From a phage, in assembly GCA_014143165.1 (NCBI GenBank), contig GCA_014143165.1_4843.1: 45,838 nucleotides of DNA. One strand, 5' to 3'. The notes under the pieces were generated by a model. The model was not told the origin of the DNA. It was given only the letters and a program-made list of their open reading frames with translations, and ran no database searches. Both the position numbers and the translations under genes were made by a program. Shown here in pieces: positions 12,242-15,120 of the stretch. Every line of letters begins with the position of its first letter. Within the stretch, counting starts at the first letter, position 1.

Positions 12242-12270
12242 TTGACGTAGATTGACGTAGCGTTTATAGT
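12242..12270 (+). promoter_or_regulatory. sigma70-type promoter (TTGACG-17 bp-TATAGT) with tandem TTGACGTAGA
   Basis: TTGACG at 12242-12247 and 12252-12257; TATAGT at 12265-12270; drives the plus-strand ParB/MTase/clamp unit. Confidence 0.45.
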
Positions 12271-12311
12271 TGTTGATGTAGAAACAGCAATAAATGTTAG
12301 AGGTGATGAAA

Positions 12312-12485
12312 ATGGAAGGTGAAACAGAAGTTTTTGCTGTTGATGTTTTTTATCAAGCATCAGACGAAGGCATTCCAGCTCACTGGTGCTGCCAGTTTAT
12401 TCGCGATGGATGGACTGGTTATGAATATTTTGATAACTCAGAAGATGCATATAACTATGCTTACTCACATGGATTTCAAGGATAA
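12312..12485 (+). CDS. hypothetical small protein
   Basis: GAGGTGA RBS 5 nt upstream of ATG 12312; first gene of the operon. Confidence 0.4.
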   Translation: MEGETEVFAVDVFYQASDEGIPAHWCCQFIRDGWTGYEYFDNSEDAYNYAYSHGFQG

Positions 12486-12488
12486 ACA

Positions 12489-13298
12489 ATGAAAACACTC
12501 AGCAAAATATATTCAGACAAAGAAACGCGCAACGGCATCGCTGTTAACAAAACCTATCTCGTGCCAGTTGAGCAAATCTATCTGGAACCGGGCTACAACA
12601 TCCGTGAAGCAGATGAGCAGCATGTGGAATATTTCGCGCAGTGCTGGGAATCAGGTCAGCCACTGCCAGCATTAACAGTTATTCCTGACGAGAAGGGAAT
12701 CCGCATTCTTAATGGTCAGCATCGCTATCTCGGCGAATTGCGTGCCATTGAGCGTGGCGCGCCAATCGTTCGCATTGAGTGTAATGATTTTACAGGAGAC
12801 GAAGCAGATAAAATCGCCTTCATGGTGTCATCCAGTCAGGGTAAGCAGCTCGACCCGTTTGAGCGCGCAAAGGCTTACACGAGACTGAAAGGTTTTGGCT
12901 GGACGAATGAAGAAATCGCCAAAAAGGTAGGCCGCTCAGTATCTGATGTGCAAATGCATCTGTCACTGGGTGATGTTCCAGCGGAAGTGAAAGCGCGCAT
13001 CAGTGCAGGACAAATCAGCTATGCAAATGCCGTAGCGGTAACGCGCGAGCATGGTGATGATGCGGCTAAAGTTATCGACGAGGCAGTCGAAGAGGCCAAA
13101 GCACAAGGCAAAGACAAGGTCACAGCGAAAGTACTGAAGGCGAAAAAGATTAAGCCAGTAGACCGCCTGATTGAGTTATTGAAGCCAGCCGACCATGTGA
13201 TTCTCCCCGCTGGTCATGTGGTGGCAGAGGATGAGGAATTTATCCAGATTCCTGTCGCAGACATTCACGAGGTTATGGCAATTCTGGAGAAGATGTGA
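12489..13298 (+). CDS. ParB-like N-terminal-domain (ParB/Srx fold) DNA-binding protein
   Basis: N-terminal ...VPVEQIYLEPGYNIRE... and ...LNGQHRYLGELRA (ParB GERRxRA-box-like), followed by HTH-like WTNEEIAKKVGRSVSDVQMHLSL. Confidence 0.65.
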   Translation: MKTLSKIYSDKETRNGIAVNKTYLVPVEQIYLEPGYNIREADEQHVEYFAQCWESGQPLPALTVIPDEKGIRILNGQHRYLGELRAIERGAPIVRIECNDFTGDEADKIAFMVSSSQGKQLDPFERAKAYTRLKGFGWTNEEIAKKVGRSVSDVQMHLSLGDVPAEVKARISAGQISYANAVAVTREHGDDAAKVIDEAVEEAKAQGKDKVTAKVLKAKKIKPVDRLIELLKPADHVILPAGHVVAEDEEFIQIPVADIHEVMAILEKM

Positions 13299-14095
13299 TG
13301 ATAGTCCACTACTACAATGAGTGGGACAAGGGCGCAGCGGCATGGCTGCGCGAATTAATTAACAATAAACTAATTCCTTACGGATATGTCGATGAGCGAT
13401 CAATTACCGAAGTCACCCCTTCAGACCTGGAAGGATTTACACAATGTCACTTCTTTGCCGGAATCGGAGGGTGGCCCCTTGCACTCCAGCTGGCAGGAAT
13501 ACCAGAGAGCACTCGACTCTGGACAGGATCACCACCTTGCCAGCCGTTTAGCGTTGCCGGTCAGTCTCGCGGATTTGATGACGAACGACACCTTGCCCCT
13601 GTATTTCTCCGGCTCATCAGAGAGTGCAAACCTGAATTGCTATTTGGAGAGCAGGTTGCGGCAGCAATTGCAAAGCACTGGCTCGACTTTGTATTCCTTA
13701 ACCTGGAAGAAAAAGGCTACACCTGCGGGGCGGCAGTATTGCCAGCTTGCAGCGTCGGCTCTCCACAGGAAAGGAAAAGAACCATCTTTGGCGCGAGGAT
13801 GGGCGACACCAACAGCGCGAGGATGGAAGGATTATGGGAATCTCAGCAAGTCATTTTACAGAAAGGACGGAAAATTCAGGAACGATACTCTTTATCGCCA
13901 GATGTGGCTTCATGTTTATGGGATTCATGGAAACCCAAACATGGAGCAGATAAAGAAACTAGAGTCATACCAGGCGGATTTTGCGAGGCAACTCATGGGG
14001 TATCCGCAAGAGTGGGACGACTGCGCGGTTATGGCAATGCCATAGTTCCACAAGTCGCAGCAGAATTCATTAAAGCATTCATGAGGTCCGTTTAA
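13295..14095 (+). CDS. compact DNA (cytosine-5)-methyltransferase
   Basis: Motif I FFAGIGGW, motif IV GSPPCQPFSVAGQ, motif VI LLFGEQV, motif VIII GSPQERKRTIFGA, motif X GYGNAIVPQVAAEFIKAF. A second open frame (13386..14045) carries a motif-IX-like FARQLMGYPQEW (see findings). Confidence 0.7.
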   Translation: MMIVHYYNEWDKGAAAWLRELINNKLIPYGYVDERSITEVTPSDLEGFTQCHFFAGIGGWPLALQLAGIPESTRLWTGSPPCQPFSVAGQSRGFDDERHLAPVFLRLIRECKPELLFGEQVAAAIAKHWLDFVFLNLEEKGYTCGAAVLPACSVGSPQERKRTIFGARMGDTNSARMEGLWESQQVILQKGRKIQERYSLSPDVASCLWDSWKPKHGADKETRVIPGGFCEATHGVSARVGRLRGYGNAIVPQVAAEFIKAFMRSV

Positions 14096-14268
14096 TGACA
14101 CCAGAACAATTCATCGAAAAACAACTACGCGCCAAACTGCCGGACATCGACCAGATGGCAATTGATGCGGCAATTCAGTATTACAAGCGCAATCAGAGCG
14201 AAAAGAAGGGTGGCATTTTTGAAGAGTGCCTGAAGGTTGCAAAACAACACATGATTAAGGTGAAGTGA
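14095..14268 (+). CDS. hypothetical small protein (57 aa)
   Basis: ATG overlaps the MTase stop (TAATG); ends TGATG overlapping the next start. Confidence 0.3.
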   Translation: MTPEQFIEKQLRAKLPDIDQMAIDAAIQYYKRNQSEKKGGIFEECLKVAKQHMIKVK

Positions 14269-14807
14269 TGAAACTAAAAATCAGCAAATTATTACTTGAA
14301 TCAGCATTAATATTTCAGGCTCGCAACGATGTGCGGTATTACCTGAATGGAATCTGCTTCATGCCTGATGGTCGCATTGCATCAACTGACGGTCATCGCG
14401 CATTTATTGGTGGCAACCATGACAATACGCTGACAGAAAATGTGATTATCAAGATTGGCAAGTCACCAACAAAGCGCTATGACTACGCCATCATTGATAC
14501 CAAAGCGAAAATTGCAACGTATCATGATGAAGCTGGTGTGATGGTTGGCACTGGTATCTGCGAAGAGATTGACGGACGATTCCCGGATATTGACCGCATC
14601 ATTCCGAAGCAGATCTCGCCAACAGAGGAAATTGGCTTCAATGCTGGCTATCTTGTTGATGTCGAGAAAGCTGCGAAGCTATTTAACCCTAGATTATGTG
14701 GAGTTAAGTTTGAATTGAATGGAAATACAAATGCCGCAGTTTGCTGCCTTAGTGCGCCAACTGGCGAAACTGCGAAGATTGTTGTTATGCCGATGAGGAT
14801 TTATTAA
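14268..14807 (+). CDS. truncated DNA polymerase III beta sliding clamp homolog (DnaN domain II plus C-terminal strand)
   Basis: NDVRYYLNGICF...STDGHRA matches DnaN QDVRYYLNGMLFE...ATDGHRLA; DGRFPDIDRIIP matches DGRFPDYRRVLP; EIGFNAGYLVDV matches EIGFNVSYVLDV; C-terminal KIVVMPMRIY matches DnaN's YVVMPMRL. Only about 180 aa versus about 366 for DnaN. Confidence 0.7.
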   Translation: MKLKISKLLLESALIFQARNDVRYYLNGICFMPDGRIASTDGHRAFIGGNHDNTLTENVIIKIGKSPTKRYDYAIIDTKAKIATYHDEAGVMVGTGICEEIDGRFPDIDRIIPKQISPTEEIGFNAGYLVDVEKAAKLFNPRLCGVKFELNGNTNAAVCCLSAPTGETAKIVVMPMRIY

Positions 14808-15088
14808 TGAGTGAAGAGATGAAGCCATGCAGGCTTTGCGGAGTTAAGCAAAGCGGCGTCGATGAACATAATAATGAATACGAAAAACTTGTCAGCCTTG
14901 TTCTTCGTTCTGGAGACGAAAGAGAACTGCTTGAGTTGATTGACCTGATGAGAGGCAAAATAATAACGTCGGTAACAACATCAATTGGTAGCAGTAAGTT
15001 GGCATATGAAAGCCGCGAACTTTATCATGTTCAAGTCATGCATGACGCAATATCTTTACTGCGTGAAAAGCTAATTTCCAGACAGTAA
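14807..15088 (+). CDS. hypothetical protein
   Basis: 93-aa ORF, start overlaps the upstream stop; last gene before the terminator. Confidence 0.4.
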   Translation: MSEEMKPCRLCGVKQSGVDEHNNEYEKLVSLVLRSGDERELLELIDLMRGKIITSVTTSIGSSKLAYESRELYHVQVMHDAISLLREKLISRQ

Positions 15089-15092
15089 ACCA

Positions 15093-15120
15093 AAGCCCCT
15101 TTACGGGGCTTTTCTTTTAT
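15093..15120 (+). terminator. rho-independent terminator
   Basis: GCCCC-TTTA-CGGGGC hairpin plus TTTTCTTTTAT; nearly identical to the terminator at 8336-8362. Confidence 0.6.

Follow-up and report, generated by a model that had tools for sequence, protein, structure and literature searches.

The window, by which we mean the whole stretch of 45,838 nucleotides that was analysed, covers approximately an entire siphovirus genome of ~46 kb, whose near relatives include Escherichia phage Sa179lw (Buchananvirus) and the Salmonella phages 64795_sal3 and seszw. Embedded antisense among the head and tail genes of this phage is a compact plus-strand cassette (12242-15112), the features of which are collected in Table 1. 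The gene of interest, here called the mini-clamp gene, begins with ATG at 14268 and ends with TAA at 14805-14807, and its product of 179 aa has the position and length given in the original prediction; all of the peptides quoted there (NDVRYYLNGICF, STDGHRA, DGRFPDIDRIIP, EIGFNAGYLVDV and KIVVMPMRIY) were found in it. In the sequence TGATG the start codon shares bases with the stop codon of the 57-aa gene upstream, and in TAATG the stop codon overlaps the start of the 93-aa gene. The 93-aa ORF has no family match and is absent from the closest relatives.

Some features of the neighbouring genes were recorded on the way. The C5 methyltransferase-like protein is compact, with a Pfam match that covers model positions 62-167 of 324 only, and the closest relatives, Sa179lw and sal3, carry small ORFs where the window phage has the methyltransferase. 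An ORF of 219 aa (13386-14045), on the strand of the methyltransferase gene but in a different frame, overlaps that gene and holds a motif-IX-like sequence, ARQLMGYPQEW. It was considered as the carrier of methyltransferase motif IX and set aside; it is without a Pfam match and is probably a chance ORF. Phage DNA-modifying enzymes that need a ParB partner are reported in a 2026 paper (PMC13229309).

Table 1. Features of the mini-clamp cassette in the window, and antisense loci of the family in five phage groups
Feature	Position	Strand	Basis or remark
Sigma-70-like promoter candidate, TTGACG-17-TATAGT	12242..12270	+	Consensus scan, 10/12 matches; such sites are no commoner in the region than in shuffled sequence, so a candidate only; heads the cassette
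Upstream cassette genes	12294..14268	+	Short gaps or overlapping stop/start codons between them
Acidic 63-aa ORF	first gene of cassette	+	'Anti-restriction protein' in relatives' records
ParB-HTH (KorB-like) protein	12489-13298	+	'ParB-like' in relatives' records
C5 DNA methyltransferase-like protein	13295-14095	+	Overlaps the ParB-HTH gene (stop/start)
57-aa ORF	14095-14268	+	Directly upstream of the mini-clamp gene
Shine-Dalgarno-like AAGGTG	14257..14262	+	5 nt before the mini-clamp ATG; read from the sequence
Mini-clamp gene	14268..14807	+	179 codons + TAA; ORF list, DnaN homology, PHROG 3007, dN/dS
Domain II equivalent, residues 1-101	14268..14570	+	DnaN ~126-237; hhalign, AF2, cleft mapping
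II/III connector DGRFPDIDRIIPKQ, residues 102-116	14571..14615	+	DnaN 238-251; P242, R246 and V247 equivalents
Second half of DnaN domain III, residues 117-179	14616..14804	+	DnaN 312-366; one beta-alpha-beta-beta-beta module
93-aa ORF	14807..15088	+	Downstream of the mini-clamp gene; start overlaps its stop
Bidirectional terminator-like hairpin AAAGCCCC...GGGGCTTT	15092..15112	.	Closes the cassette
Antisense loci of five groups	window 12242-15112; L127 10362-11696; L128 3962-4483; L131 4004-4552; L133 2498-2995		Opposite orientation inside the head/tail cluster

Relation of the mini-clamp to the bacterial sliding clamp

When the mini-clamp was compared with all PDB chains by phmmer, the significant matches were beta sliding clamps only, with enterobacterial clamps (Enterobacter and E. 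coli in the lead) at E 1.3e-13 to 6e-12 and a few P450-type chains at E >1. BLASTP against E. coli K-12 DnaN gave E 2e-12 over DnaN 136-288 and E 7e-6 over DnaN 316-366. A profile of the family (136 members) aligned to E. coli DnaN with 99.5% probability and E 2.9e-23 (hhalign), and matched the PDB at E 1e-31. The homology to DnaN that had been proposed is thus borne out by pairwise and by profile alignment, all of it significant (phmmer, BLASTP, hhalign). The top structural matches are all beta sliding clamps or other proteins of the clamp fold, namely PCNA, 9-1-1 and viral processivity factors.

Scores against curated models are low. TIGR00663 gives 32.2 bits against a curated cut-off of 137.65, PF02767 and PF02768 give 17.1 and 16.4 bits against cut-offs of 27, and the Pfam search returned no match to PF00712, the clamp N-terminal domain. 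Because these scores fall under the curated cut-offs, standard annotation does not recognise a clamp, and public records label the protein inconsistently: 'RusA-like Holliday junction resolvase' is the RefSeq label, and 'DNA polymerase III beta subunit' and 'putative DNA polymerase' also occur. The RefSeq label traces to PHROG 3007, which the mini-clamp matches over its full length (E 1.6e-62, residues 1-178 on profile positions 1-186 of 190), and it is carried by RefSeq NC_054637, NC_031918, NC_048178 and others. A RusA identity is not supported: no RusA family appears among the Pfam matches at E up to 10, and both fold and sequence are those of DnaN. None of the three labels describes the content of the sequence.

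As aligned, the mini-clamp begins with the equivalent of domain II, continues through the II/III connector and ends with the second half of domain III, which makes 1.5 clamp domains. The domain II part carries the cleft motifs NDVRYYLNG (residues 20-28) and STDGHR (residues 39-44), and the second channel-lining helix of this domain is reduced to a short loop at residues 64-72 in the AF2 secondary structure. The C-terminal module (residues 117-179) contains the N320 and Y323 equivalents and the terminal cleft strand VVMPMRIY; compared with the six half-domains of DnaN, it scored 31.5 bits with the second half of domain III, 7.6 with the first half and <0 with the other four. The profile alignment has a single large gap, in which DnaN 252-311 is skipped. 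Domain I is entirely missing, as had been predicted. The companion claim, that most of domain III is also absent, has to be corrected, since about half is missing (the first half, DnaN ~252-311) and the second half is kept.

Both sides of the head-to-tail dimer interface, that is the domain I strand at ~R103-F106 on one side and I272/L273 with ~298-305 on the other, lie in the deleted segments. The interface residues are marked by the I272A/L273A clamp variant, which is monomeric (PMC11139829), and the R103C/I305C cross-linked clamp (PDB 3pwe) was used as a further source. The loss of the dimerisation elements put forward in the original prediction is therefore seen in the alignment, where domain I and DnaN 252-311, with I272/L273, are both deleted. 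With these segments gone, the mini-clamp is predicted to be incapable of making a head-to-tail dimer ring.

A clamp of another build was weighed at this point. Each protein would contribute 3 of the 12 beta-alpha-beta-beta-beta modules, and four copies joined through two kinds of two-fold interface would close into a ring and so hold a polymerase on phage DNA. EBV BMRF1 is a tetrameric ring with two such kinds of two-fold interface, and in the mini-clamp family the 179 aa correspond to three modules of ~60 aa, with lengths kept within a narrow range of 170-195 aa. An AlphaFold model of four tethered copies, crude in that it was built on a 14-sequence alignment, reached a pTM of 0.46, which is above our expectation for four independent units, and yielded no confident ring and no clamp-like arc. 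Over the five four-copy models (tethered copies, same 14-sequence alignment), mean pLDDT ran from 76 down to 55, and at most one copy superposed on a clamp chain. Residues 121-125 and 145-149 form regular strands in the four-copy model and not in the monomer model; this favours a multi-copy assembly to the extent that some self-association is possible. Against a four-copy ring, the subfamily of the mini-clamp lacks the channel-lining helix of domain II, and the pairs of clefts, placed on opposite faces, would mismatch the one-sided host clamp loader. Taken together, the four-copy result, the lost helix and the lost interfaces make a canonical or alternative ring unlikely, and the four-copy ring itself is regarded as very improbable.

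Conservation of the cleft and of the family

In DnaN, subsite I of the protein-binding cleft is made up of R152, L155, T172, G174, H175, R176, L177, P242, R246, V247, V360 and M362, and subsite II of H175, N320, Y323, V344, M362, P363, M364 and R365 (2024 review, PMC11139829). These residues were mapped from the review onto an alignment of 136 diverged family members. The equivalents of R152, L155, T172, G174, H175, P242, Y323, M362 and P363 are 91-99% conserved and that of R365 is 85% conserved, in agreement with the original prediction that the partner-binding elements are kept. Of the 16 positions most conserved in the family, 10 are DnaN cleft residues, and the mean top-residue frequency is 0.74 at cleft positions vs 0.41 at all positions, figures to be read with the caveat that the same residues are the most conserved across DnaN generally and that finding homologues by sequence may inflate the signal. 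The other strongly conserved positions are mostly in the same motifs (DVRYYLNG, DGxFPD), as sequence neighbours of cleft residues. No second conserved motif or surface stands out in the alignment of the 136 members, which fits a protein that binds through a single interface.

At an overall identity of ~30%, the near-invariance of the cleft indicates that selection acts on it. The mini-clamp lacks the full set of three domains, has no dimer interface and scores below the curated cut-offs; among the features by which DnaN is recognised it has only the QLxLF-binding hydrophobic cleft between domains II and III, as judged by residue conservation. By these family criteria the protein is best classed as a derivative of DnaN and not as a member.

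The gene is widespread. Homologues were sought in other phages, as the original prediction had advised, and tblastn located the gene in at least 301 cultured phage genomes, whose hosts include Salmonella, Escherichia, Vibrio, Klebsiella, Proteus and Pseudomonas. When 1.8 billion cluster representatives were searched exhaustively, 186 clusters came out at E <1e-10; the best 150 of these 186 are mostly 165-225 aa, the rest being shorter or fragment-length, and most of the clusters of 165-225 aa align end to end at 28-50% identity. Scanning viral contigs with a back-translated DVRYYLNG DNA pattern returned ~100 mini versions vs ~9 full-length clamps. On one viral contig (L061, 5009-5656) a DnaN of the full-length type is split, with the PF00712 domain as a separate ORF beside an ORF of 215 aa, so complete clamps are also carried by some phages.

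That the ORF might be a decayed remnant had been raised along with the original prediction, and the corresponding reading is that of a functionless fragment of a captured dnaN in decay. The Edwardsiella phage PEi21 homologue, split into two ORFs, would suit it. Set against this are a dN/dS of 0.12-0.18 in comparison with two close relatives, which denotes purifying selection, an intact gene in 284 of the 301 phage genomes, and conservation of a ~180-aa protein over its full length across hundreds of clusters (made at 50% identity), even where identity falls to ~30%; the window copy also has a Shine-Dalgarno sequence and start and stop codons that overlap the flanking genes. The decay reading is effectively refuted by the conservation data, its probability being negligible, and the mini-clamps are a large, old and conserved family.

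Two side observations concern individual members. The PEi21 copy (L130, 4001-4528) consists of two short ORFs of 69 and 81 aa, is frameshifted or mis-sequenced, and is the sole clearly broken copy noticed. About one quarter of the family members have a low-complexity tail of 10-90 aa after the (I/V)MPMR motif (for example L013, L035, L036, L047, L069, L073, L091, L102, L123 and L124, and P0231, P0257 and P0267); the window mini-clamp is without one. The 53 distinct tails include 24 with a terminal -AA, the ends of others being -LA, -VA or -KKVA, and about half hold a P-x-[WFY]-hydrophobic motif such as PSWL, PAWA, PDWL or PDFL. These endings resemble the ssrA-type and MuA/YbaQ-type recognition signals of ClpX, and would suggest regulated instability of the tailed relatives.

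Genomic contexts and possible functions

The replication enzymes of the carriers vary, being DnaB-type, primase-helicase, PolA or none, and the gene is portable across these systems. Among the proteins of the window phage are a Prim-Pol/PriCT-2/DUF3987 primase-helicase, an SF2 helicase and a Sak4-type ATPase; in Sa179lw, a close relative, an SSB and a Gam-like protein are annotated. Neither a family A nor a family B DNA polymerase was found in the window phage, from which we infer that it relies on host Pol III. In the lambdoid Hafnia phage yong1 the order is cro-cII-gene-O-P, another locus reads DnaB-x-gene-RecT, and elsewhere the mini-clamp follows a helicase; Pantoea phage Nafs113 has helicase-nuclease-gene, and in Edwardsiella phage PEi21 the mini-clamp lies directly after a DNA polymerase.

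In Sortsne (L129, 3309-5300) and IME_EC2 (L134, 1816-4022) the mini-clamp lies between two DNA methyltransferase genes. In Dhillonvirus, represented by Escherichia phage WF5505 (L127), it is immediately downstream of nmad5, in a phage with its own family A polymerase; a ParB-like identity of this upstream gene was considered and rejected, as the gene is Nmad5. Kagunavirus, Gorganvirus and Shewanella phage 1/41 have it as a lone antisense gene within the structural cluster. Together with the group of the window phage and Dhillonvirus, five unrelated groups hold the gene in opposite orientation inside the head/tail cluster.

Clustering of neighbours by BLAST over 47 dereplicated viral loci revealed no partner gene common to more than six loci, and no Pfam family was matched by more than two of 118 neighbour proteins. 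Since replication types vary and no neighbour is fixed, these contexts point to a conserved host target rather than to a fixed phage partner. As neither a phage partner nor a further motif stands out as conserved, a conserved host protein is predicted as the most likely target.

The mechanism proposed here, to which we lean with some reserve, is that of a cleft module acting as a competitive sponge for selected host clamp clients. The mini-clamp would be a free-standing cleft module of the beta clamp, folded as a rigid piece of the clamp and expressed from the cassette headed by the sigma-70-like promoter candidate. Its cleft would bind the clamp-binding motifs (QLxLF-type) of host proteins off DNA, and it would have no role as a processivity ring. 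Candidate clients are clamp-loader delta, Pol III alpha and epsilon, Pol II, IV and V, MutL and MutS, and Hda. The sponge would compete selected clients off the host clamp and might thereby rewire host replication and repair for the phage, which is the least certain step. The original prediction had spoken of a decoy for clamp-binding proteins, and the passage from binding clients to acting as a decoy is the weakest part of the proposal.

Among the candidate clients, clamp-loader delta is an attractive candidate for the predicted target. Delta plugs L73 and F74 into subsite I, and a structure of delta bound through the cleft to a monomeric clamp variant is available (PMC11139829). The difference in the affinity of delta between clamp forms has been put down to the energy of opening the dimer (PMC11139829).

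Further considerations restrain the sponge mechanism. The family is much more basic than DnaN, with a median pI of 8.2 vs 5.25, which counts against a sponge and might indicate DNA binding instead. The window phage and the lambdoid carriers need host Pol III and the host clamp, so that a general decoy would hurt them, which argues against an indiscriminate inhibitor. The sponge would therefore need selectivity, and its targets might be delta during unloading, translesion polymerases in competition with Pol III or proteins of mismatch repair; otherwise the protein would be an adaptor. The selective sponge and the adaptor are equally open.

As an adaptor, the mini-clamp would be a 'tool-belt' without a ring: its cleft would hold one client, which could be a polymerase, ligase or repair enzyme of the host or a DNA-modifying enzyme of the phage, and another, lineage-specific surface or its basic face would tie that client to the phage replisome or to phage DNA, so that replication is coupled to modification or repair of phage DNA. 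The basic pI of the family suits such a role, as do the positions in replication modules (yong1, the DnaB-x-gene-RecT locus, helicase-nuclease-gene and PEi21 after its polymerase) and the recurrence of DNA-modification neighbours, with Sortsne, IME_EC2, the Nmad5 of Dhillonvirus and the ParB-HTH and C5 methyltransferase genes of the window. The Dam of Sortsne ends in ...QAEMIFDGKTLI, and its C-terminal QAEMIF is similar to the hexameric clamp-binding motif, which would also favour an adaptor. This hexamer was rejected as a conserved clamp-binding motif, as it is absent from three Dam homologues, and a regex scan of the window phage proteins for clamp-binding motifs gave four weak internal matches, none of them convincing. 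With no neighbour conserved over the 47 loci and no second conserved surface evident as well, the adaptor is considered rather unlikely on the whole.

The accessory, 'moron'-like antisense position in the structural cluster of five unrelated phage groups brings in a further reading, in which a mimic of the clamp cleft serves against host defence. It would soak up effectors of the host or of prophages that dock on the cleft, as SocB-type toxins do, or that sense phage replication via the clamp. We know of no defence system in Enterobacteria that needs the clamp cleft, and a PADLOC search for defence-system membership gave no matches. The label of the first cassette gene in relatives, anti-restriction, would fit such a role, and the positions in replication modules fit it less well. 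In favour as well is the Dhillonvirus neighbour nmad5, which governs sensing by the Tmn defence system, where a single substitution leads to escape, and which is toxic to clone (PMC11846954). The clamp-like neighbour of nmad5 is not mentioned in that paper (PMC11846954). Weighed together, an anti-defence decoy is improbable.

A broader proposal, that the family makes up a widespread class of cut-out clefts with one of several functions, is held to be doubtful. Such a protein could be a selective sponge, directed at the delta wrench, at SOS-induced translesion polymerases or at mismatch repair; in the -AA-tailed relatives it could be a short-lived or client-degrading factor; or it could be a four-copy ring of new symmetry.

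Comparison with known systems and significance

Nothing on the mini-clamp family came up when 8 million papers and preprints were searched for phage clamps of a truncated, decoy or DnaN-like kind. The closest protein is DnaN itself (E. coli P0A988; PDB 2pol, 1mmi), with which the mini-clamp shares fold and ancestry, the best matches being gamma-proteobacterial clamps. It also retains domain II, the connector, almost every cleft residue and the second half of domain III. Unlike DnaN, the mini-clamp is half the size, lacks domain I, the first half of domain III and the second domain II helix, is basic where DnaN is acidic, and stays below all curated thresholds.

By analogy, the nearest natural precedent would be beta*, which was reportedly described by Skaliter, Paz-Elizur and Livneh in 1996 as a UV-inducible, 26-kDa product of an internal start that comprises the C-terminal two-thirds of E. 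coli DnaN, and which is said to form a ring-like trimer that supports polymerase processivity. It is said to start at about DnaN 135, near the start of the mini-clamp at ~130, and to keep the cleft as the mini-clamp does; unlike the mini-clamp, which is without half of domain III, beta* reportedly keeps all of domains II and III.

Phage proteins directed at the same node form a second comparison. Phage G1 ORF240 and coliphage N4 gp8 target the host clamp system, gp8 by binding clamp-loader delta. Gp168 of the Staphylococcus phage Twort (complex with the beta clamp, PDB 7evp) is likewise a phage product aimed at the node of clamp and clamp loader, as is proposed here for the mini-clamp. None of the three is related to the mini-clamp; they are small proteins with the clamp itself or delta as their binding partner, whereas the mini-clamp would imitate the docking site. 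The herpesvirus processivity factors have the clamp fold without a canonical ring (HSV UL42 as a monomer, HCMV UL44 and KSHV PF-8 as dimers, and EBV BMRF1); unlike the mini-clamp, they have two full domains and bind their own viral polymerase and DNA, and no sequence relation to the mini-clamp is detectable.

The mini-clamp is thus a widely distributed, conserved, half-length relative of the clamp that, to judge from its retained cleft, probably binds host clamp clients off DNA. At least 301 phages carry the gene, many of them proposed for the biocontrol of Salmonella, E. coli and Klebsiella, under labels that misdescribe the protein. The beta clamp cleft is the hub at which all five polymerases of E. 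coli are coordinated with the clamp loader, Hda and mismatch repair, and is an antibiotic target. If the proposal is true, the family would represent a new viral way to disturb the host replisome or to borrow from it, and would provide a ready tool to titrate clamp clients in vivo and a minimal scaffold for cleft-binding drug screens.
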